Shown here one piece after another: positions 2,922-26,290 of a DNA stretch of 64,000 bases (within the stretch, counting starts at the first letter, position 1; the number at the start of each line of letters is the position of its first letter). Below the pieces are notes generated by a model. That model had not been told where the DNA came from. It was given only the letters and a program-made list of their open reading frames with translations, and ran no database searches. This stretch comes from Gemmatimonadota bacterium (GTDB taxonomy: Bacteria; Gemmatimonadota; Gemmatimonadetes; Longimicrobiales; Gaopeijiaceae), in assembly GCA_039589315.1 (NCBI GenBank), contig JBDHHQ010000003.1:96001-160000 (forward strand), in the 5' to 3' direction. A program made the position numbers and the translations under genes.

Positions 2922-3007
2922 GACCACCTGCTCCGTCGGTGGCCGGAAGGGCGAATCGTCGCCGCACCGCCCCGGGTCGTCCCCCGGTCGAAAGGAACGC
3001 GGGCCCC

Positions 3008-6708
<3,701 letters not shown>

Positions 6709-6712
<4 letters not shown>

Positions 6713-8583
6713 GCGCACGGGAGCTGCGGGAGCTCATCGAGGACGGCCGCGTCCATGTGATGGACGGCGCCATGGGTACGATGCTCTACGCCCGGGGCGT
6801 CTTCGTGAACGTGTGCTATGACGAGCTCAACGTCACCGAGCCCCGCCTGGTGCAGGACGTCCACGAGGCGTACGTGAGCGCCGGGTCCGAGATCATCGAG
6901 ACCAACACGTTCGGGGCCAACCCCGTCAAGCTGTCGAGCTGGGGGCTCGACGAGCGGACCGAGGAGATCAATCGGGCCGCAGCGCAGCTGGCCCGGGCCG
7001 CGGCCCGTGGGAAGGCCACCGTGCTCGGTGCCGTCGGGCCGCTGGGGATCCGCATCGAGCCGTGGGGCCCCACGTCACGCGCCGAGGCCCAGGCCCTCTT
7101 CCGACGCCAGCTCCAGGGGCTCCTCGAGGGTGGGGCGCACGGCTTCGTGCTCGAGACGTTCAGCGACCTCAGCGAGCTCGAGCAGGCGTACCGGGCCGCC
7201 CGCGATCTGTGTGATTTGCCCGTGTTCGCCCAGATCACGGTGGGCGAAGACGGAGCCACCGCGTACGGAACCGCGCCGGAGGTGGCGGCCTGGACGATGG
7301 CCGACTGGGGCACCGACGTGGTGGGCCTCAACTGCTCGGTGGGACCCGCCGTCATCCTGGACGCCGTGGAGCGCATGGCAGAGGTCACGGACCGGCCCCT
7401 CTCGGCACTGCCCAACGCCGGACTGCCCCGAGCGGTGGGCGACCGGATGATCTACATGGCGAGTCCCGAGTACATGGCCCAGTACGCGCGCCGGTTGCTC
7501 GAGGCAGGCGTGCGCTTCGTTGGGGGCTGCTGCGGGACTACGCCGGATCACATCAGCCGTATACGGGACACCGTCGCGTCGGTGCAGCCCAGGCCGGTCA
7601 CGGTGGGGATAGGCGCGGCACGGGTGCCCCCTGCCCCGCCGGGCCTCGAGGAGTCGCCCCTGGCCTCGCGGTCCGCGTGGGGGCGCAAGCTCTCCACCGG
7701 CTCCTTCGTAACGAGCGTCGAGGTCATGCCAGGGCGCGGCTGGGACGCAGGCCGGCTCGTCGAGGCGGCGCGGGCCCTGCATCGGGCCGGTGTCGACGCG
7801 GTCGCGATTCCGGACAGCCCGCTCGCGCAGGGCCGGATGGCTGCGGTACCTGCCGCCCTGGTGGTGGAGCGAGACGTGGGCATCGAGACCCTGGTCCACT
7901 ATACCTGCCGAAACCGCAACATGATCGGCATGGTGAGCGACCTTCTCGGAGCGGCCGCGGCGGGACTCCGCAACGTCCTGCTCGTCACCGGAGACCTTCC
8001 CACCGAAGGTCCGTACGCCCAGGCCACGCCCGTCTTCGACATCGACTCCATCGGCCTCACGAACGTCGTGCACCATCTGAACCGGGGCGTGGACCCCGGT
8101 GGCAGCTCCATCGGCGAAGCCACCCGCTTCGTGATCGGCGTGGCCTTGAATCAGGGTGCCCGGGACATGGAGCGAGAGCTGGAGCGCTTTGCCTACAAGG
8201 TCGAAGCCGGTGCCCACTTCGCGGTCACTCAGCCCGTCTTCGCCGTGGAGGATCTGGCCCCCTTCCTCGAGCGGAGCAAGGCCTGGGCGATTCCGGTCGT
8301 CGCTGGCGTCTGGCCGTTCACCTCCCTCCGGAACGCCGAGTTCCTGGCCAACGAGGTTCCCGGGGTGCGGGTGCCGGACTCCGTGGTCCGGCGCATGCGA
8401 GACGCTGACGCCCGGGGTCAGGAGGCCGCGCAGCGAGAGGGCATGGCCATCGCCAACGAGGTCATCGAGGCCGTCCGGCCGCTGGTGGCGGGGGTCCACG
8501 TGGGCACGCCGGGACCCGTCACGGAAGCCATAGAGCTGCTGGCTTCGACGGACGTGATCCCCCTTTCGGGAACGGGCCGCTGA
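6709..8583 (+). CDS. yitJ: Bifunctional homocysteine S-methyltransferase / 5,10-methylene-THF reductase
   Basis: [14 protein letters not shown] and GGCCGTTP, then an MTHFR domain ([19 protein letters not shown]); ATGA overlap with metH. Confidence 0.92.
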
Positions 8584-10237: not shown

Positions 10238-11176
10238 GTGCGCATCGGCATCGACCTCGGCGGCACGAAGACCGAGATCATCGGGCTCTCGGCTCACGGC
10301 GAGGAGCTCGGACGCCGCAGAACCGCCACCCCCCGAAGCTACGACGGCTCCCTTGATGCCATGGTCGATCTCGTGACGTGGATCGAGGCGGAGACCGGTC
10401 AGCGGGGAAGCGTGGGCGTGGGAATCCCGGGCGCCCTCTCACCGTCGACCGGCAACGTGAAGAACGCCAATTCCACCTGGCTCATCGGCCACCCCCTGGC
10501 CGAGGATCTCGCGGCGGCATTGGCGCGTCCGGTGAGAGTGATGAACGACGCCAACTGCTTCGCTCTTTCGGAGGCGACCGACGGAGCCGGCGCCGGCGCC
10601 GACGTGGTCTTCGGCGTGATCCTGGGTACAGGGGTCGGGGGTGCGATCGTCGTGGACGGACGGTGCCTGGAAGGACCCAACCGTATCGCGGGAGAGTGGG
10701 GCCACAATCCGCTCCCGTGGCCCCGCCCCGCCGAGCTCCCGGGACCCGCGTGCTACTGCGGCAAGCAGGGATGCATCGAGACGTTCGTCTCCGGGCCGGG
10801 GCTCGAGCGAGACCACCGCACCGTGACGCGGGAGGATCTGGCCAGCCCGGAGATCACGGAGAGGGCAAGCGCCGGCGACGCTGGCGCGACCGAGGCCCTG
10901 CGAAGGTACGAGGACCGTCTCGCTCGGGCTCTCGCCTCTGTCATCAACATCGTGGACCCGGACGTCGTGGTCCTCGGCGGCGGCATGAGCAACCTGCCGA
11001 GTCTGCCCGAATCGGTCGCGGCGGTCGTGCCGCGCTACGTCTTCTCCGACGAGGTGCGAACCCGGATCGTTCGCAACCGGCACGGCGATTCCAGTGGAGT
11101 CCGGGGAGCCGCCTGGCTCTGGTCCGAGGGGTCGGACCCGGAGAGAGCGGCCGGTCGCCGGACGGGCAAGCCTTGA
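10238..11176 (+). CDS. mak: ROK family sugar kinase (manno/fructokinase)
   Basis: IGIDLGGTK, NDANCFALSEA.DGAG, GEWGHNPLP, CYCGKQGCIE. Confidence 0.9.
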   Translation: MRIGIDLGGTKTEIIGLSAHGEELGRRRTATPRSYDGSLDAMVDLVTWIEAETGQRGSVGVGIPGALSPSTGNVKNANSTWLIGHPLAEDLAAALARPVRVMNDANCFALSEATDGAGAGADVVFGVILGTGVGGAIVVDGRCLEGPNRIAGEWGHNPLPWPRPAELPGPACYCGKQGCIETFVSGPGLERDHRTVTREDLASPEITERASAGDAGATEALRRYEDRLARALASVINIVDPDVVVLGGGMSNLPSLPESVAAVVPRYVFSDEVRTRIVRNRHGDSSGVRGAAWLWSEGSDPERAAGRRTGKP

Positions 11177-11190
11177 CGGGGTAGGCACCC

Positions 11191-13872
11191 CTAGCCGCGG
11201 AGCGCCTCCCGGAGAGCCGCGGCCAGTGTCGACTTCTCGAACGGCTTCTCCACCAGAGCGACCTGGTCGTCCAGCCGCCCTTCACCCGCCAGGACGTCCC
11301 TCGAATAACCGGAGCTGTACAACACCCGCAGTTCGGGCCTGCGCCTGCGGGCCTCGTCGGCGAGCTGGGCCCCGGTGGTCCCGCCCGGTAGCACGAGGTC
11401 GGTGAAGAGCAGGTCCACCTCCGGCTCCCCCTCCAGGATCGCCAGAGCCGCCTCGGCTTCCTCGGCCTCGAAGGTGTCGTAGCCGAGCCGTTTGATCAGT
11501 CGGACAACGAGACGCCGCACGTCCGGGTCGTCTTCCACCACCAGGATCACCGCGTCGCCATCCGACGCCTCGGCGACGGGAGCGACCGGGAGAGAGACGG
11601 TGGACCGACTGCCCCCCGCCCGGGGCATGTAGAGACGGACGGTGGTCCCCAGCCCCGGCTCGCTCTCGATGGAAATGTGCCCCCCCGACTGGCTGACGAA
11701 TCCGTACACCATGCTCAACCCGAGACCGCTTCCCTTGCCCACCTCCTTGGTGGTGAAGAAGGGCTCGAAGGCGTGCTCGAGGATCTCCGAAGGCATCCCG
11801 GCCCCGTCGTCCTTCACCTCCAGCAGGACGTACTCGCCCGCTGGAGCGCCGCCCGACAGAGTCTGTCCGTCGTCCAGTACGGCGTTCGACGCGCGGATTT
11901 CCAACCGTCCGCCCCGCGGCATGGCGTCCCGGGCGTTCAGCACCAGGTTCAGGATCGCGTTCTCCATCTGGGGGCGGTCCGCGCGCAGCGTCCAGAGGTC
12001 CGCGGCGACGCTGGACCGCACGTCGATGGCCTCCCGCAGACTGGCGGTGAGCAGATCCTGCATCTCGGTGAGCAGCGCGCCCAGGTCCACGACGGTGGGC
12101 CGGAGCGTCTGACGCCTGGAAAAAGCCAGGAGGCGCTGGGTCAGGGTGGCGCCGCGCCGCGTGGCATCCATGGCCGCCTCCAACGCGCTCAACGCCTTGT
12201 GTCCCTCTCCGAGGTCGGCCCTCACGAGCTCCAACCCGCCCATGATGACCGTCATGAGGTTGTTGTAGTCGTGCGCCACGCCGCCGGTCAGCTGGCCGAC
12301 CACCTCCATCTTCTGGGACTGCCGCAGCTGGTCCTCGGTATGCCGGCGTCGCGTGATGTCCTCGATGACGAAGACGAAGTAGGCCGGCTCCCCCCCTTCG
12401 TCGCGCAGGAGCGCGACGGTCAAGTTGCCCCAGACGGTGCCGCCGTCCTGTCGCAAGTATCGTTTCTCCATGCTGAACGACTCCAGCTCCCCCGCCAGGA
12501 CCCGCCTGAGACGCTCAGCGGTCTCGCCCCTGTCTTCCGGGTGCGTGAAGGATTCGTAAGGGACGTTCAGCAGATCGGCCCGATCGTAGCCGAGTATCTC
12601 CGCGCCGCGCTTGTTGACCCTGAGGAGGCGGCCGTCCACATCGACGTGCGCGATCCCTACCGCCGCCTGCTCGAAGGTGCTCCTGAACCGCACCTCGCTC
12701 TCCCGCATGGCCTCCTCGGCCACGACTCTGTCCGTCAGGTCGGTCGCCACGCCGGTGACGCCGGTGACGTCACCGGCCTCGTCGACGATCGGGGTATAGG
12801 CCGTCTCCCAGACCAACTCCCCCACACGGACCGTCGCCTTCACGACCTCGCCGTCCAAGGCACGGCGAATCTCGTCCCGGATCCCGGGGTACAGATCGAA
12901 GGCCGATTGTCCCACCACCTGACCCGGCTCCAACCCCAGCGCCTCCAGTCCCTGGCCCTCCGAGAGGGTGAACCGGCCGTCCCGGTCCAAGGCGAAGAAG
13001 ACGATGGGTGCGTTGGACACGATGGTGGCGATCCAGGTCTCCGCCCGCCGCAGCTCGTCCTCGGTGAGACGACGCGCGGCCTCCACGGTCGAGAGCACCT
13101 GGGCCTGCCGTCCGTACGTTCCCAGCAGCAGGTCGAGCGCACCCCGGTCCCGGTCCGGGGCATACCCGGGCATGGTGGGCGCGACCCTGACCAGGTACCA
13201 CGCAGCCAGGGGCCAGACGATGACCCCTGCCACCGACTTCTGCACCAAGGTGATCCCGACGGGGTCCAGGAGTCCGCCCCAGCCGAACGCGACGACGCGG
13301 AACGTCAACGTGTCCGTCCACAGGGCCGCCAGCAAAGCCAGGCCCGGGGTGACCCAGGTCGGGGTTCTCGGCAGGAAGTTGGTCACGGTCTGGTAGACCA
13401 CCACGATCGCCGTCAGGCTCAGCGCGAACGCCGCGAGAGAGCCGATCGTGATGGACGGGGACCGGGCCAGGGAGCGGTGGTCCGCCGCGAGACCGGCGAT
13501 GGTGCCGCCGCCGGGCAGGGAGAGGTGGCCGGCCTGGAGAAGCTGAAGGCCCAGCGCCAGCACGCTCACGCCCAGGACGCCGAAGAGGGTGATGCGGGCA
13601 GCGGCCGTGCCCTGGACCACGTAGATGGCGAGCATGCCCAGGAGCGCAGCGGGGACGAGGACCACCGACACGATGATCACGTCGACGCCCGGCAGCGCCT
13701 CGACGAAGACGCCTACGGGGCCGAGCGTGTGCAGGATGGTCACGATGGCCGCCAGGCAGAGCATCAAGGGCGCCAGGCCATATCTGGGACTGAGCCGGTG
13801 CAGCCACAGAACCACGCCGCACAGCACGATCAGATCGACGACGACCAGAAGAATGTTGTTCAAGGCGCTCAT
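11191..13872 (-). CDS. Hybrid sensor histidine kinase: multi-TM input domain, 2 PAS domains, HisKA, HATPase, receiver
   Basis: QKME.VGQLTGGVAHDYNN H-box, NLVLNARDA, FEPFFTTK.VGKGSGLGLS, receiver LVVEDD..DLLFTDLVLP. Confidence 0.95.
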   Translation of the reverse strand: MSALNNILLVVVDLIVLCGVVLWLHRLSPRYGLAPLMLCLAAIVTILHTLGPVGVFVEALPGVDVIIVSVVLVPAALLGMLAIYVVQGTAAARITLFGVLGVSVLALGLQLLQAGHLSLPGGGTIAGLAADHRSLARSPSITIGSLAAFALSLTAIVVVYQTVTNFLPRTPTWVTPGLALLAALWTDTLTFRVVAFGWGGLLDPVGITLVQKSVAGVIVWPLAAWYLVRVAPTMPGYAPDRDRGALDLLLGTYGRQAQVLSTVEAARRLTEDELRRAETWIATIVSNAPIVFFALDRDGRFTLSEGQGLEALGLEPGQVVGQSAFDLYPGIRDEIRRALDGEVVKATVRVGELVWETAYTPIVDEAGDVTGVTGVATDLTDRVVAEEAMRESEVRFRSTFEQAAVGIAHVDVDGRLLRVNKRGAEILGYDRADLLNVPYESFTHPEDRGETAERLRRVLAGELESFSMEKRYLRQDGGTVWGNLTVALLRDEGGEPAYFVFVIEDITRRRHTEDQLRQSQKMEVVGQLTGGVAHDYNNLMTVIMGGLELVRADLGEGHKALSALEAAMDATRRGATLTQRLLAFSRRQTLRPTVVDLGALLTEMQDLLTASLREAIDVRSSVAADLWTLRADRPQMENAILNLVLNARDAMPRGGRLEIRASNAVLDDGQTLSGGAPAGEYVLLEVKDDGAGMPSEILEHAFEPFFTTKEVGKGSGLGLSMVYGFVSQSGGHISIESEPGLGTTVRLYMPRAGGSRSTVSLPVAPVAEASDGDAVILVVEDDPDVRRLVVRLIKRLGYDTFEAEEAEAALAILEGEPEVDLLFTDLVLPGGTTGAQLADEARRRRPELRVLYSSGYSRDVLAGEGRLDDQVALVEKPFEKSTLAAALREALRG

Positions 13873-14001
13873 AGGGAGCCGGCGATCCCGTTGTGGGAGG
13901 GTGACCCAGCGAACGATGGATCGGGCTGGAGGATTTGGAAAGTCCCCGACGCCCGGTGCCGCGCGCCCGCCACGCCGGAAGCTCGGCGGAGGACGCCCGC
14001 G

Positions 14002-14349
14002 CTACCCGTCTTCGCGCTCGACACCCAGGAAGACGTTGACCAGCGAGATCACGAGTGAGCCGAGGAATGCCGACTTGAAGTCCGTCACGGAGAGGGCGCG
14101 CGTGAACGCGTCCGTGAGCATGAGCATCGCTGCGTTGACCACCAGCGAGAAGAGGCCGAGGGTCAGCAGGATGAACGGCAGGGTCAAGATCTTGATCACG
14201 GGCTTCACCAGCGCGTTCACCGCGCTGAGGACCAACGCCACGACCACGACTTCACCGAAGACCGGCGAGAGTTGAATGCCGTTGATCAGCGTCGCGGCCA
14301 GCCAGAGGGCCACGGCGTTGGCGAAGATCCGAAATAGCAGGCTTCTCAT
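14002..14349 (-). CDS. Phage_holin_4_2 / YvlD-like 4-TM membrane protein
   Basis: VNALVKPVIKILTLPFILLTLGLFSLVVNA signature. Confidence 0.85.
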   Translation of the reverse strand: MRSLLFRIFANAVALWLAATLINGIQLSPVFGEVVVVALVLSAVNALVKPVIKILTLPFILLTLGLFSLVVNAAMLMLTDAFTRALSVTDFKSAFLGSLVISLVNVFLGVEREDG

Positions 14350-14401
14350 GAGTCCCTTTGCGTGGCAGGGCGAGCCCCCTGGGCGGAGGCTCACGCGCGC
14401 T

Positions 14402-15298
14402 TCACGGTAAGGCATCCTCGTCCAAGCGCTCCACCGCCGCAAGGATGTCCCCCAGCTTCTGATGAACTCGGCGGAAGCCGAGGTTGCTCACATAGACCTT
14501 GTCCGCGCCGACCCGGCAGAGGGCTCTCAGCGTGCGGGCGCAGATCTCGGTGGGCGTGGCCCCCTCCGCGAACTCCCGGGTCAGCGCGGCCACCGGCACG
14601 GGAAAGAAGGAGCTCAAGCGCTCCAACGTCCGGGGGTTGGCGCTCCGGTAGAAGAAGACTCCGAATGCCGCCGGCATGTCCGGCGCCCGGCTGTGCAACT
14701 CGTTCACGAAGGCTTCGAGGGCCGGCAGGCTGTGGTGCGAAACGACCTGGGTCAGGATGAACTCGGCCTCGAAGTCGCCTCGCGTGACGAAGCCCACCTG
14801 CTCCGCGGGATCGCGGTGAGGATTGGCCCAGCCGCCCAGCACGAGCTCCGGGACCGCCTCGCGGATTCGCTGCCGCAGCTCGTTGGCGTGGGGCAGGCAG
14901 CGTGCCGGTCCAACGGAGGGATCGCCTCCCAACACCGTGAGAGCCGGGAACCCCAGGGACGCCGCTCGACGGGCGAACATGAGGCAGTAGTCGAGGGGGT
15001 GCTTGCAGGTGAGGAAGGGCACCACCTGCTCGAACCCCACCTCGCGGCCCAGATTGTAGCTCAGGTGTGTCAGGCTCTCCTCTTCCTGCGCGCCGACTGC
15101 GTTGTCGGTGAGGAAGACCGGTGTGCCGTTCCGGGTCAGATGCCGGAGGGAGTGCCGCATGTCGATCCAGACGTCCATGCCCTCCTCGAGGGAGAGCCGG
15201 CTCTTGGGCGGACGCAGCTCCACCGAGGTCATGGGCCCGGGTTCCCGGAGACGCGTGAGCACCGGAGACGTGCGCCGCACCTCACCGCCACCGCTCAA
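14402..15298 (-). CDS. Divergent methylenetetrahydrofolate reductase-like (MetF-fold) protein
   Basis: SVELRPPK, FLTDN, PFLTCK, TVLGGD, GGWANP, FILTQV motifs in MTHFR order. Confidence 0.7.
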   Translation of the reverse strand: MSGGGEVRRTSPVLTRLREPGPMTSVELRPPKSRLSLEEGMDVWIDMRHSLRHLTRNGTPVFLTDNAVGAQEEESLTHLSYNLGREVGFEQVVPFLTCKHPLDYCLMFARRAASLGFPALTVLGGDPSVGPARCLPHANELRQRIREAVPELVLGGWANPHRDPAEQVGFVTRGDFEAEFILTQVVSHHSLPALEAFVNELHSRAPDMPAAFGVFFYRSANPRTLERLSSFFPVPVAALTREFAEGATPTEICARTLRALCRVGADKVYVSNLGFRRVHQKLGDILAAVERLDEDALP

Positions 15299-19107: not shown

Positions 19108-21228
19108 TTGCGGAGCGCCGTGATCATCGGGGCCGGGCTCGTCCTGTCGGCAACCGCCCCCCTGCTCCCGAGCGCGGGGCCCGTTCGTGCTCAGGAACCC
19201 GCGCCGGACAGCCTTCCTCCGGTCACCGTCGACACCTTGGTCGTTCAGGTGCTTCGCACCCCGGTGGAGCTGGGCAACGTGCCCTTCTCCGTGTCCACCG
19301 CCGGAGTCGAAACCCTGCGGAGGGGCAAGGCCGGAGTCTCACTCGAGGAAGCCCTGCAGGCAGTCCCCGGCGTCCAGCTCCAGAACCGCTACAACTACTC
19401 GACGGGAGAGCGGGTCGCGGTGCGGGGCCTGGGCGCCCGCGCCCAGTTCGGCGTCCGTGGTCTCAAGGTGCTGATCGACGGGATTCCAGCTACGCTACCG
19501 GACGGCCAGTCCACCCTCGATCACCTGGACCTGGGCTCGTTGGGCCGGGCGGAGATCCTGCGGGGACCCGCATCGGCCCTGTACGGCAACGCCTCCGGGG
19601 GGGTGCTGTCGTTCTCCACTGCGCCACCCCCGACCACCCCGTTTCGCCCCGACGTGCTGATCGTCGGCGGAAGCGACGGACTGTTTCGGCTGCAGGGTAC
19701 CGCGGCCGGGACGGCCGGTGCCACGCGGTACCTGGCCAACGTGGCGTGGCTCGGCTACGACGGATTCCGTACCAACCCCCTGGAGCCGGAGGGCCAACCC
19801 TACAGCCGCGCGGAACGCCTGAACGTCAATGGCCAGCTCTCGTGGAACGTCTGGGGCGGCAGGCTCGGCCTGACGGTCAACGCCCTTCGCCTGGATGCCG
19901 AGAACCCAGGGTCGCTGTCGGATTCGCTGCTCGCGGTGGGAGATCGCGAGGCGTTCCGTTTCAACGTCATTCAGCAGACCCGGAAGGAGGTGAGCCAGGG
20001 CCAGGCCGGCGTGAGCTGGGAGGGTCCGGTGGGCTCGCTTCGGGGCCAGATCACCGCGTACGGCATCACGCGAACGCTGGACAACCCAATCCCGCCGGTG
20101 GTGATCGACCTCGGTCGTCTGGCGGGAGGAGTGAGAGCCACCCTGGGGAGCGGCTCGGTGCGGTCGGAGGAGCGGGCCGGTTGGCTCGTCGGCGCCGACC
20201 TCGAGCTCCAGCGCGACGACAGGCTCAACTACGACAACGACGGCGGCGAGCGAGGCGAGGTCGTATTGGACCAGCTCGAGCGCGTGCGGGGGGTGGGTGT
20301 CTTCGCCCAGGGAGGCCTGGGAGTGGGATCGCGACTCCGTGTGGTCGGCGCCCTCCGTTACGACCGGTCGAGCTTCGAGGCCGACGACCGCCTTCCCGCA
20401 CGCTTTCCCGGACAGGGCCTCGAGGACGCATCCGGTGACCGCACCATGGACGCCCTGAGCCCTTCGGTCGGCATCAGCCTGGACGCCGGATCGGGACAGA
20501 CCGCCTTCGTCAGCGCCTCGTCGCTCTTCGGAACGCCGACGACCACCGAGCTCGCGAACCAGCCGGATGGCTCCCGCGGCTTCAACCAGGAGCTCGACCC
20601 ACAGACGGGCTTCACGCTGGAAGCCGGTGCGCGGGGGCGCTTGGGTGGGTCGGCCGGATACGAGATCGCCTTCTTCCGCACGCAGCTCGAGGGCGAGCTC
20701 ATTCCGTTCGAGTCGCCGGACCAGCCGGGCCGGACCTTCTTCCAGAACGCGGGATCGTCTCGGTACCGAGGCGTGGAGGCCTCTCTGTTCGGCTCCGCGG
20801 GTAGGGGAGTGAGCGGGAGGGTCACCTATACGTTCACGGACGCCGAGTTCGAGGACTACGTGGTCGACGGCGAAGATCTGCGCGGCAACAAGATCCCGGG
20901 TCAGGCTCCGCACCGAGTGGAGGCCCTGCTACGCATCGATCAGGGGAGGGGCTATGGCGAGCTCCGGTATCTCTTCATGGACGCAATCCCGGTGAATGAC
21001 CGGAACACGGCGTCTTCCGACGGCTACGGTCTCGTGGACCTTCGGGGGGGATTCGCCGACCTGGCCCTTGGCCGGCTGGTGCTGTCGCCCTTCGTGGGGG
21101 TGAACAACCTGTTCGACGAGACCTACGTGGCGTCCGTGGTGGTCAACGCGTTCGGCGGCCGGTTCTTCGAGCCGGGCCCCACCCGGACCCTCTACGTGGG
21201 CCTGTCGGCCGGCTGGCCGGGAGGCTGA
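19108..21228 (+). CDS. TonB-dependent receptor
   Basis: Signal peptide; plug (VRGLG..IDGIP, EILRGPASALYGNASGGV); C-terminal VNNLFDETY..PGPTRTLYVG. Confidence 0.92.
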   Translation: MRSAVIIGAGLVLSATAPLLPSAGPVRAQEPAPDSLPPVTVDTLVVQVLRTPVELGNVPFSVSTAGVETLRRGKAGVSLEEALQAVPGVQLQNRYNYSTGERVAVRGLGARAQFGVRGLKVLIDGIPATLPDGQSTLDHLDLGSLGRAEILRGPASALYGNASGGVLSFSTAPPPTTPFRPDVLIVGGSDGLFRLQGTAAGTAGATRYLANVAWLGYDGFRTNPLEPEGQPYSRAERLNVNGQLSWNVWGGRLGLTVNALRLDAENPGSLSDSLLAVGDREAFRFNVIQQTRKEVSQGQAGVSWEGPVGSLRGQITAYGITRTLDNPIPPVVIDLGRLAGGVRATLGSGSVRSEERAGWLVGADLELQRDDRLNYDNDGGERGEVVLDQLERVRGVGVFAQGGLGVGSRLRVVGALRYDRSSFEADDRLPARFPGQGLEDASGDRTMDALSPSVGISLDAGSGQTAFVSASSLFGTPTTTELANQPDGSRGFNQELDPQTGFTLEAGARGRLGGSAGYEIAFFRTQLEGELIPFESPDQPGRTFFQNAGSSRYRGVEASLFGSAGRGVSGRVTYTFTDAEFEDYVVDGEDLRGNKIPGQAPHRVEALLRIDQGRGYGELRYLFMDAIPVNDRNTASSDGYGLVDLRGGFADLALGRLVLSPFVGVNNLFDETYVASVVVNAFGGRFFEPGPTRTLYVGLSAGWPGG

Positions 21229-23662: not shown

Positions 23663-23791
23663 GTCGTCTCGGATCCGACCCACGTCGTCGGTGCCGGGCG
23701 ACGTGCCGACCACGTCGCGAACGGCAGCCGCGCGCCCGTGTTTCAGCCTCGCCCAAGAGGGCCATGCGGGAACCCGGCGGGTACATCCGAG

Positions 23792-26290
23792 ATGAGCGCA
23801 GACCTTCGAGGGAGAGCCCCCGTGGCCGAATCCAACGATACCGGGGACCGGGGGGCGGCCGAGAACGCCCTGTCCGGGTCCCCCACACCGCGCCGCGCAG
23901 ACGACCCCGAAGCCCGAGCGCTCCGGGGGGGCGCGGAATCCGCGGCTGGGAGCGAGGGCGATGGGGCGCCTTCGCCCAGGCTACGCACCGACTTCGTGCG
24001 TGCCCAGGTCGAGGAGGACAACCGCACGGGCCTGTATGGTGGGAGGGTGCATACGCGGTTCCCGCCGGAGCCCAACGGATTCCTCCACATCGGTCACTCC
24101 AAGTCGATCTGCCTGAACTTCGGGATCGCGGAAGAGTACGGGGGCGCCTGCAATCTCCGCTTCGACGACACGAACCCGGAGACCGAGGACATGGCCTACG
24201 TCCGGGCCGCGGAGAAGGACATCCGCTGGCTGGGGTTCGAGTGGGACGGCCTCTTCTTCGCCAGCGACTACTTCGAGCAGCTCTACGACTTCGCCGAGAC
24301 GCTGATCCGCAAAGGCAAGGCCTACGTCGACAGCCTGACGGAGGAGGAAATCCGGGAACACCGCGGGACGGTGACGGAGCCGGGCCGTCCGAGTCCGTAC
24401 CGGGATCGCTCGGTGGAGGAGAACCTGGACCTGTTCCGGCGCATGCGGGCCGGTGAGTACGAGGACGGAGCCCACGTGCTCCGGGCCAAGATCGACATGG
24501 CCTCGCCCAACATGATCATGCGCGACCCGGTGCTGTACCGGATCCGTCACGCGAGTCACTACCGGACCGCCGACGAGTGGTGCATCTACCCGCTCTACGA
24601 CTTCACCCACTGCCTCTCCGACGCCCTGGAAGACATCACCCACTCGGTGTGCACGCTCGAGTTCGAGAACAACCGGGAGCTGTACGACTGGGTGCTGGAC
24701 GAAGTGGGGTACACGGACCCCCGCCCCCATCAGTACGAGTTCAACCGGCTGAACCTGGACTACACCGTCACGAGCAAGCGCAAGCTCATTCCGCTGGTCG
24801 AGGAAGGGCGCGTCAGCGGTTGGGACGATCCGCGGATGTCCACCCTGGCCGCGTTTCGGCGGCGCGGGGTCACGCCTGAGGCCATCCGGGCGTTTTGCGA
24901 CATGATCGGCGTCGTCAAGAGCGACAGCCGTGAGGATCTGGCCAAGCTGGAGTACGCCATCCGCGACGATCTCAACCGGAAGGCCCCCCGCGTCATGGGC
25001 GTGCTCGAGCCGCTGCGCGTGGTCGTCACGACCTTCCCCGATGAAGAGACCGACTGGCTGGATGCGCCGTACTATCCCCGCGACGTACCGCTCGAGGGGT
25101 CCAGGAAGGTGCCGTTCACCCGGGAGATCCTCATCGAACGGTCGGACTTCCAGGAGGATCCTCCCAAGGGATGGCGCCGTCTGGCACCGGGGTGGGAGGT
25201 GCGCCTTCGATACGGGTACGTCATCGAGTGCGAAGAAGTCGTGAAGGACGACAGTGGCCGCGTCGTGGAGCTCCGCTGCTCGCACGACCCGGGGAGTCGG
25301 GGCGGCAGCGCGCCTGACGGGCGCAAGATCAAGGGAACGATCCACTGGGTGTCCGCCGACCACGCCCTCCCCGCCGAAGTGAGGCTCTACGACCGGCTGT
25401 TCACCGAGCCGGATCCCCAGGCGGGCCCCGAGGGCACCGACCTCAGCGACTTCGTGAACCCCGAGTCCCTGGTGGTGGCGGCAGGCGCCCGGCTGGAGCC
25501 GAGCATTGCCGAAGACGATCCGGATACCCGGTACCAGTTCGAGCGTTTGGGCTACTTCTGGCGAGACCCAGTGGACTCGACGGCCGACGCTCTCGTGTTC
25601 AATCGGATCGTTACGCTGCGCGATACGTGGGCCAAGCGGGCCACCCAGGTACCGGAGCCCACCGCCCCGACGAAGCGGACGGAGGGCGGTACCGCACCAC
25701 GGACCGAGGCGGGCGCTTCCCGACGGCCGTCGCCTCCGACCCTGGGGCCAGAGGGACAGGCCCGCTTCGACAGATTCAGGGGCGAGCTCGGCGTCTCCCA
25801 CGACGATGCCCGCGGCCTGGCGGCCAACCCCGTCCTTTCGCGCTATCTCGACGAGGCGGTGGACGCCGGGGCCCCGGCCCCCGCCGCGGCGAGGTGGCTG
25901 GTGAACGAGCTTCTACGGGAAGCCAAGGACACGCCCCTCGAATCGTTGCCGGTGAGCGGGGTGAACGTGGCCGAGCTGCTCTCGCTCGTGGCCGATGGCA
26001 CCCTGTCCGTGGGTATCGCCCGAGAGGTGTTCGCCGACATGGTCGGAGGCGGCGGACGCCCGTTCGATATCGTGGAGCGGCGAGGCCTGCGCCAGATTTC
26101 CGACGACGACGCCCTGTCTCCCCTCATCGCCACGGTCGTGGACGAGCACCCCGACGAGGTCCGACGCTACCGGGAAGGCAAGTCGGCCCTGCTGGGGTTT
26201 TTCGTGGGCAAGGTCATGCGAGGCTCCGGTGGCAAGGCCAACCCCGAGCGCGTGCGGGCTCTGCTCGCGCGGGCGCTGGAGGAGGTCTAG
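23792..26290 (+). CDS. glnS: Glutamine--tRNA ligase with C-terminal GatB/YqeY domain
   Basis: TRFPPEPNGFLHIGH, LRFDDTNP, TSKRK, FERLGYF; C-terminal ..LLGFFVGKVMRGSGGKANP YqeY domain. Start uncertain. Confidence 0.95.
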   Translation: MSADLRGRAPVAESNDTGDRGAAENALSGSPTPRRADDPEARALRGGAESAAGSEGDGAPSPRLRTDFVRAQVEEDNRTGLYGGRVHTRFPPEPNGFLHIGHSKSICLNFGIAEEYGGACNLRFDDTNPETEDMAYVRAAEKDIRWLGFEWDGLFFASDYFEQLYDFAETLIRKGKAYVDSLTEEEIREHRGTVTEPGRPSPYRDRSVEENLDLFRRMRAGEYEDGAHVLRAKIDMASPNMIMRDPVLYRIRHASHYRTADEWCIYPLYDFTHCLSDALEDITHSVCTLEFENNRELYDWVLDEVGYTDPRPHQYEFNRLNLDYTVTSKRKLIPLVEEGRVSGWDDPRMSTLAAFRRRGVTPEAIRAFCDMIGVVKSDSREDLAKLEYAIRDDLNRKAPRVMGVLEPLRVVVTTFPDEETDWLDAPYYPRDVPLEGSRKVPFTREILIERSDFQEDPPKGWRRLAPGWEVRLRYGYVIECEEVVKDDSGRVVELRCSHDPGSRGGSAPDGRKIKGTIHWVSADHALPAEVRLYDRLFTEPDPQAGPEGTDLSDFVNPESLVVAAGARLEPSIAEDDPDTRYQFERLGYFWRDPVDSTADALVFNRIVTLRDTWAKRATQVPEPTAPTKRTEGGTAPRTEAGASRRPSPPTLGPEGQARFDRFRGELGVSHDDARGLAANPVLSRYLDEAVDAGAPAPAAARWLVNELLREAKDTPLESLPVSGVNVAELLSLVADGTLSVGIAREVFADMVGGGGRPFDIVERRGLRQISDDDALSPLIATVVDEHPDEVRRYREGKSALLGFFVGKVMRGSGGKANPERVRALLARALEEV

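Follow-up and report, generated by a model that had tools for sequence, protein, structure and literature searches.

A 64,000-nucleotide stretch of Gemmatimonadota DNA (family Gaopeijiaceae; assembly GCA_039589315.1, contig JBDHHQ010000003.1, positions 96,001 to 160,000; this whole stretch is called the window below, and positions are counted within it) encodes on its reverse strand a hybrid sensor histidine kinase (11191..13872), which we consider likely to be a VUPS-type membrane receptor whose input domain has the S-component fold, is related to YhhQ and reads a small molecule, the parts of this reading being taken jointly. The open reading frame starts with ATG and runs uninterrupted for 893 amino acids, and its GC content at third and second codon positions (GC3 0.89, GC2 0.46) is of the coding type, like that of the adjoining real genes; translation, Pfam matches and codon-position GC together give a whole gene of the order VUPS - PAS - PAS - HisKA - HATPase_c - REC, all features of which lie on the reverse strand.

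The input domain (residues 3-233, 13174..13866) was delimited from Pfam, an AlphaFold model, fold searches and profile comparison, and comprises seven predicted membrane helices; the original prediction had counted about seven at the N-terminus, and hydropathy (seven hydrophobic stretches within residues 1-235) and the model agree on seven in the first ~235 residues. The Pfam family PF20973, VUPS ("Vitamin uptake-like sensor"), matches residues 20-227 (13192-13815) with 43.2 bits (E = 4.5e-11) when the 893-residue protein is searched, against a curated gathering cut-off of 27, and with 47.5 bits (E = 2.2e-12, profile positions 2-206 of 206) when residues 1-245 are searched alone; a whole-genome scan returned the identical VUPS score for the kinase, and VUPS occurs once in the source genome. 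The transporter family Vut_1 (PF02592) aligns in the same register with 19.8 bits for the full-length kinase and 23.1 bits for residues 1-245 alone, missing its cut-off of 27.2; and the 'queuosine precursor transporter' model TIGR00697 likewise reaches 22.8 bits (E = 6.7e-5) and misses its cut-off of 50.95. The other receptor family to be considered, 5TM-5TMR_LYT (PF07694), gave no row for residues 1-245 or for the whole protein at E <= 10, with the caution that HMMER filters discard most matches above ~0.1, so that a very weak PF07694 likeness could escape. By these profile scores the membrane domain is a member of the curated VUPS sensor family, homologous to Vut_1/YhhQ yet outside the Vut_1 family as curated, and its architecture is that of VUPS proteins, with an N-terminal multi-helix membrane domain followed by PAS-PAS-HisKA-HATPase_c-REC.

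Kinship with the Vut_1/YhhQ transporters is well supported when all tests are taken together. An hhalign comparison of the VUPS alignment with a Vut_1 alignment headed by Escherichia coli YhhQ (b3471) gave E = 1.8e-4 and a probability of 48.9% over 160 columns, pairing query residues 66-234 with residues 42-209 of the 221 in YhhQ, and a comparison of 130 VUPS domains with 120 Vut_1 proteins gave E = 9.5e-4 and a probability of 22%; reversing the alignment on either side left 15 columns at E = 0.32 and 0.33. The VUPS hidden Markov model scored all 121 of 121 Vut_1 proteins at 8.6-21.9 bits, and reversed copies of these proteins at -6.7 to 5.6 bits among the 117 listed. Transitive matches point the same way, as 11 of 156 VUPS relatives also match Vut_1 at E <= 1e-5 (best 2.1e-11). 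The four segments in which a transporter pattern had originally been recognized are all present (IYVVQGTAAARITLFG at residues 83-98, SPSITIGSLAAF at 138-149, WTDTLTFRVVAFG at 185-197 and QKSVAGVIVWPL at 211-222), and in the hhalign comparison they face the corresponding stretches of E. coli YhhQ in order, a correspondence that collapses in the reversed controls: FG...AR of YhhQ stands opposite YV..GT..AR of the kinase, ARI..AS..AY opposite SPSITIGSLAAF and SDTLAFFFIAF opposite TDTLTFRVVAF, and both proteins have K...P. YhhQ also resembles the kinase domain in its cytoplasmic C-terminus, YhhQ being described as having six segments and a cytoplasmic C-terminus (PMC5372724). The two differ in that the kinase has seven helices instead of six, scores below the cut-offs of the YhhQ family (PF02592, COG1738, TIGR00697), and carries a cytoplasmic signalling extension of ~660 residues, whereas YhhQ is a stand-alone protein of 221 residues. 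The original prediction of a transporter-derived sensor thus holds in its kinship with Vut_1/YhhQ, upheld by the proposed profile and fold comparisons alike, and in the fusion to PAS-PAS-HK-REC, but it is not a discovery, as a Pfam family for such domains exists. It would have fallen had the domain matched a known sensor family without similarity to Vut_1; a known sensor family, VUPS, does include it, and that family is itself Vut_1-like.

The kinase shares its input domain with many other receptors. A search of 1.84 billion representatives found 239 VUPS clusters at E <= 1e-3 and 115 at E <= 1e-10, and in 128 of the 129 matches covering at least 200 residues the domain begins within the first 30 residues. 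Among 156 relatives scanned for domains, 139 were called as VUPS themselves, and many of the short entries are probably metagenomic fragments. The fusion partners, a survey of which the original prediction had proposed, are led by HATPase_c (105 relatives), HisKA (98), PAS_9 (88) and GAF_2 (41), with Response_reg (14), GGDEF (5), Guanylate_cyc (4) and SpoIIE (1) as rarer ones, and by these architectures the VUPS module behaves as a general sensory input domain. The window's kinase is a typical member in its above-cut-off score, in the N-terminal position of the domain and in its fusion to PAS, HisKA and HATPase_c like most relatives; it differs from them in its C-terminal receiver, in its Gemmatimonadota host and in having Ser in place of R140 and D152. 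A close-homologue search returned eight proteins including the kinase itself, all of them VUPS-PAS-kinase proteins. Within the phylum the domain is sporadic, being found in 4 of 201 Gemmatimonadota genomes and in none of 23 other genomes of the same family.

Conservation was counted in our own alignment of 130 VUPS representatives (~25-85% identity), not in the Pfam seed. The kinase keeps 38 of the 42 positions that are conserved in at least 60% of these relatives, among them H25, R30, G32, Y84, G88, R93, S145, Q161, N165, D187, K212, Y226 and R243, and departs from the conserved set in L43I, R140S, A144G and D152S. Conservation of the intramembrane polar and charged positions is high (H25 in 122 of 129, Y84 in 127 of 130, D187 in 121 of 130, Q161 in 115 of 130, N165 in 108 of 129 and K212 in 100 of 129), and the juxtamembrane R243 is nearly invariant (121 of 130).

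The AlphaFold2 model of the input domain, built from the 130-row alignment, has a predicted local distance difference test score (pLDDT) of 95.0 and a predicted template modelling score of 0.92, with helices at residues 3-26, 34-53, 67-87, 89-118, 139-166, 174-196 and 205-233 and a short hairpin at 56-66. In BFVD, a set of predicted viral structures, it is matched best by a siphovirus protein labelled 'Putative vitamin uptake transporter' (probability 1.00, E = 8.3e-4, TM score 0.56), so that the best fold match in that set is a phage member of the YhhQ family; two further rows had a probability of at least 0.99 and the remainder at most 0.35. In a PDB-wide fold search, 15 of the 16 best rows were energy-coupling factor (ECF) S-components or their solitary kin, at Z 7.0-9.9 and root-mean-square deviations (rmsd) of 4.0-5.2 with 150-170 residues aligned over model residues ~27-235; PanT led with Z 9.9 (rmsd 4.3, 165 aligned), followed by BioY (9.0), BtuM (8.8) and ThiT (8.5), and RibU, CbiM and FolT were also among the rows. 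The rows 4m5c_A, 4huq_S and 4hzu_S we take to be S-components from their chain labels. A sequence search of the PDB with residues 1-245 gave no matches at E <= 10, and no solved YhhQ structure turned up in the PDB searches. In the model, then, the six-helix core (~residues 27-235) has the S-component/Vut_1 fold, a reading with which the placement of COG1738 with the VUT/ECF family in TCDB agrees (PMC5372724). As the kinase must be cytoplasmic, the last helix (TM7) has to cross the membrane inwards, which puts the N-terminus on the outer side, and the core formed by TM2-TM7 then begins and ends in the cytoplasm, as in YhhQ and S-components. The S-components that gave these matches (PanT, BioY, ThiT, RibU, FolT, CbiM/NikM, BtuM), whose chains are nearly wholly covered, differ from the kinase domain in sequence (8-15% identity), in the fusion to a kinase, and in the ECF partner, no EcfT/CbiQ having been found in the source genome; the AxxxA motif typical of ECF S-components is missing as well, helix 34-53 of the kinase having no A...A, a pattern present in 30 of 130 relatives.

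The helix that precedes this core, H0 (residues 3-26, 13795..13866), is delimited by the model, by column counts and by the predicted dimer interface, and carries a membrane-embedded acidic residue, D13 (94 of 130 relatives have E, D or Q there), as well as the nearly invariant H25. Homodimer prediction with residues 1-245 scored 0.71 (runs 0.74, 0.71 and 0.69), against 0.00 for the best of three controls. Of proteins with solved structures, 20 of 30 that form pairs of one chain attain this mark, compared with 1 of 23 single-chain ones; the runs had no fewer than 91% of their contacts in common, and the partner pLDDT was 81 or higher. The predicted interface is symmetric and formed by residues 2-20, 33-58 and 94-135, that is, by H0, TM2, TM4 and the loop 119-135, with TM2-TM2' contacts predicted at residues 38, 41 and 45; this supports a model in which the VUPS domain dimerizes through H0, TM2 and TM4.

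A helix H0 ahead of a six-helix S-component fold has been described by Partipilo and Slotboom (2024) for the 5TMR-LYT kinases BtsS and YpdA, together with the lack of an AxxxA docking motif and a predicted membrane dimer, and these authors propose that a ligand binds in the bundle and signals through the last helix, calling such proteins 'transceptors' (PMC11109136). The 5TMR-LYT proteins (BtsS, YpdA, LytS; PF07694) therefore offer a parallel for the window's kinase in the N-out H0, the six-helix S-component fold, the cytoplasmic signalling part, the missing AxxxA and the predicted dimer, and the failure to find EcfT in the source genome fits this layout too. They differ in their signature, an NXR between H1 and H2 (PMC11109136), whereas VUPS has Y..(x)GT..AR, S145, YQ...N, D187 and K212; the two groups are unrelated in sequence, and no PF07694 match was listed for the kinase. 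YhhQ, Vut and COG1738 have no occurrences in the main text of PMC11109136.

In the mechanism that we propose, a small molecule would reach the six-helix bundle from the periplasmic side and be bound by conserved polar residues, with S145, D187 and K212 in the outer half and Y84, Q161, N165 and Y226 in the inner half. Binding would shift the last membrane helix, and the shift could be relayed by way of the conserved juxtamembrane segment (with R243) and then both PAS domains to the helix of the dimerization and histidine phosphotransfer (DHp) domain, where it would alter autophosphorylation at His534, transfer to Asp825 and onward transfer to an HPt protein or a response regulator. An alternative interpretation is that the VUPS bundle binds no ligand and merely holds or dimerizes the kinase, or reads a bulk property of the membrane, while the PAS domains sense the specific signals; two well-scoring PAS domains do lie between membrane and kinase, the predicted dimer interface is formed by H0, TM2 and TM4, and Ser replaces the family-common R140 and D152, but we consider this unlikely because polar and charged intramembrane residues (H25, Y84, D187, Q161, N165, K212) are conserved over 130 diverse representatives, which an anchor would not need, and because the 433-residue VUPS-GGDEF protein of another locus (L009) has no PAS match at E <= 1e-6, so that there the bundle itself must be the input.

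We caution that several observations weigh against a ligand-reading, YhhQ-related S-component fold. The two PAS domains could be the actual sensors, and no cognate response regulator or HPt gene lies near the kinase locus. The grouping of residues into an outer and an inner half comes from helix topology alone, and the site is putative; R140 and D152, charged intramembrane residues kept by 83 and 90 of 130 relatives, respectively, are both Ser in the kinase. Ser occurs at position 152 in seven of the nine closest sequences, the query counted, and with R140 and D152 lost in the kinase and in most of its close orthologues, the putative site is off the family norm or may be degenerate; the two positions co-vary weakly (63/20/27/20, Fisher P = 0.03), in relatives that are not independent of one another. 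As for kinship and fold, pairwise BLASTP with the YhhQ of L003, a Gemmatimonadota relative, gave no significant match (E = 3.5), profile-profile probabilities for Vut_1 were 22-49%, Foldseek found no PDB row at E <= 1e-3 (only weak rows, BioY at a probability of 0.80), and Z values below ~13, such as the 7-10 of the S-component matches, may reflect generic packing of helical bundles.

A second alternative gives the domain its ancestral function: as a true transceptor, VUPS would still import a vitamin or one of the queuosine precursors preQ1, preQ0 and queuine, and report the flux to the kinase. The inventory of the source genome, a metagenome-assembled genome (MAG) of 6.67 Mb in 288 contigs (95% complete, 5.07% contamination), bears on this idea. 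TGT, QueA and PTPS/QueD-like genes were found (contigs C82, C85 and C12), and searches of this 95%-complete MAG found no QueC, no QueF, no Vut_1 above cut-off, no ECF S-components (PF12822), no EcfT/CbiQ (PF02361) and no 5TMR-LYT. By the logic of PMC5372724, TGT and QueA without QueC and QueF suggest dependence on salvaged queuosine precursors, so that the source organism should import one, and the VUPS kinase is its sole Vut_1-like protein. On this pattern the ligand idea of the original prediction, a nucleobase- or vitamin-like molecule, survives as speculation. Precedents can be cited as well, since YhhQ-type proteins function without an ECF module (PMC5372724), the solitary S-components BioY and BtuM transport alone (PMC11109136), and CbrA, an SLC5-kinase fusion described as a 'transceptor', is said to combine import and reporting for histidine (PMC7096432, PMC13022988). 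CbrA of Pseudomonas resembles the window's kinase in having a transporter-type membrane domain fused to PAS and kinase domains, and differs in its SLC5/LeuT-type fold, which is unrelated to the S-component fold, and in that its transport and kinase activities have been measured (PMC7096432, PMC13022988), whereas VUPS is known from sequence and models. We nevertheless consider retained transport very improbable. The residues conserved in VUPS form a set of their own, and the scores for Vut_1 and TIGR00697 stay under the cut-offs; by an argument of PMC11109136, a toppling transport cycle would be hampered by H0, by the predicted dimer and by the tether in the cytoplasm; and full-length QueC was found in just 1 of 24 other genomes of the family while VUPS was found in 0 of 23 (4 of 201 across the phylum), so that VUPS is not the lineage's general answer to queuosine salvage. 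Absences from a MAG with 5% contamination are, moreover, weak evidence. The lineage may rely on an importer of queuosine precursors that has yet to be recognized. The furthest extension of the idea, in which the VUPS kinase is the cell's detector, perhaps also a low-capacity importer, of scavenged queuosine precursors and VUPS is a second independent recruitment of S-component fold plus H0 into receptors beside 5TMR-LYT, we regard as highly doubtful; if true, it would link a tRNA-modification micronutrient to two-component signalling. In size the source genome far exceeds most of the family relatives listed, which have 2-4.7 Mb (G211, of the same genus, has 5.8 Mb), and with its contamination some of its contigs may be foreign.

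The preferred reading, a kinase with a ligand-reading VUPS input, is also served by an intact signalling part, and the order of two PAS domains, HisKA, HATPase and receiver after the membrane part, recognized at the outset, was borne out by Pfam and by motif positions. A cytoplasmic juxtamembrane segment and helical linker (residues 234-285, 13018..13173; delimited by column counts) leads to PAS domain 1 (residues 286-383, 12724..13017; PAS_4, 49.2 bits, E = 6.9e-13 in a fragment of residues 236-392) and PAS domain 2 (residues 395-510, 12343..12690; PAS_4 and PAS at 400-510 and 395-506). The HisKA/DHp domain (residues 526-588, 12109..12297), placed by the HisKA match and motif position, holds the phospho-acceptor His534 in AHDYNN and scores 25.0 bits in Pfam, slightly under the cut-off of 26.9. 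The catalytic domain HATPase_c (residues 632-751, 11620..11979; 79.9 bits) has the motifs NLVLNARDA (642-650), DDGAGM (688-693), FEPFFTTK (702-709) and GSGLGLS (714-720), which we take to be the N, G1, F and G2 boxes, respectively, and the C-terminal receiver (residues 776-887, 11212..11547; Response_reg, 58.0 bits) has its acceptor Asp825 in FTDLVLPG. By motif position the H-box His534, the ATP-lid boxes and the receiver Asp825 of a hybrid HisKA-type kinase are thus all intact, and the kinase core most resembles PRK13557 and hybrid kinases of the CckA type, with scores under the equivalog cut-offs for these.

The design itself is already catalogued, the Pfam name VUPS stating the idea of a transporter-derived sensor, and the concept of a receptor with the S-component fold is already published for 5TMR-LYT (PMC11109136). 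In the literature searched, among which the source reference of the Pfam entry was not included, we found no paper describing or testing a VUPS domain, and a census preprint on HD-GYP proteins has no mention of VUPS. The kinase adds one Gemmatimonadota member to a named family, and what value remains concerns the family as a whole: the ligand of any VUPS protein would be new and would provide another worked case, the second, in which the fold of a micronutrient transporter has become a receptor.

Genomic context yields no clue to the ligand, because the neighbours at the four VUPS loci of the phylum are unrelated. Upstream of the kinase on the reverse strand lie genes for a prolyl oligopeptidase, an Xaa-Pro aminopeptidase, a 298-residue protein and a DUF360/holin-4-like membrane protein, separated from the kinase by a gap of 129 nucleotides; a convergent ROK kinase gene ends 15 nucleotides from the kinase stop codon, and a promoter and terminator scan of 10900-14600 gave no sites. 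The nearest orthologue locus, L007 (85% identity over the domain), was the sole locus retrieved with the kinase protein as query, and synteny with the kinase locus was seen solely in this near-identical locus. Neighbouring genes are shared neither between the kinase locus and the phylum's three other VUPS loci nor among those three: one encodes a GGDEF output beside an alginate-export porin and a GT4-P450 protein, one has no recognized output and adjoins an integrase and a TetR regulator, and one encodes PAS-HK-REC beside glycoside hydrolases and a sugar ABC transporter. The first of these, L009:7247-8548 (reverse strand, genome G105), is the compact 433-residue VUPS-GGDEF protein (VUPS 164.3 bits) whose neighbours are the porin and a glycosyltransferase-P450 fusion, and it would offer ligand studies a simpler object than kinases with PAS domains. 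The second, L010:7437-8777 (forward strand, genome G020), encodes 447 residues with VUPS at 126-327 and lies next to the TetR regulator and an integrase of phage type; its long N-terminal extension may be a mis-called start.

The 298-residue open reading frame upstream of the kinase (14402-15298, reverse strand) has a GC3 of the coding type (0.87) and overlaps the upstream Xaa-Pro aminopeptidase gene by 4 nucleotides, and an open reading frame of equal length stands at the same place in L007 (4573-5469). Its supposed likeness to methylenetetrahydrofolate reductase (MTHFR) was not borne out: neither Pfam nor NCBIfam returned a match, also when thresholds were relaxed. A link of the kinase to vitamin B12 or folate through neighbouring genes for MetH, a homocysteine S-methyltransferase (HcyMT)-MTHFR and a TonB receptor was also rejected, these genes being on the opposite strand or several genes away and synteny extending just to L007.

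On the forward strand, the window encodes a B12-dependent methionine synthase, MetH, of 1257 residues (2939-6712), followed by the bifunctional homocysteine S-methyltransferase/MTHFR (6553-8583; NF006396, 675.8 bits); the two open reading frames overlap by ~160 nucleotides, so the second gene probably starts past its first in-frame start codon. The TonB-dependent receptor (19108-21228, forward strand) is nearest the pyrroloquinoline quinone (PQQ) receptor PqqU, at 302.9 bits and thus far below the equivalog cut-off of 1200. Further along the same strand, 23738-26290 encodes a class Ic Glu/Gln-tRNA synthetase of 850 residues with a C-terminal GatB/YqeY domain (PF02637, residues 703-847).

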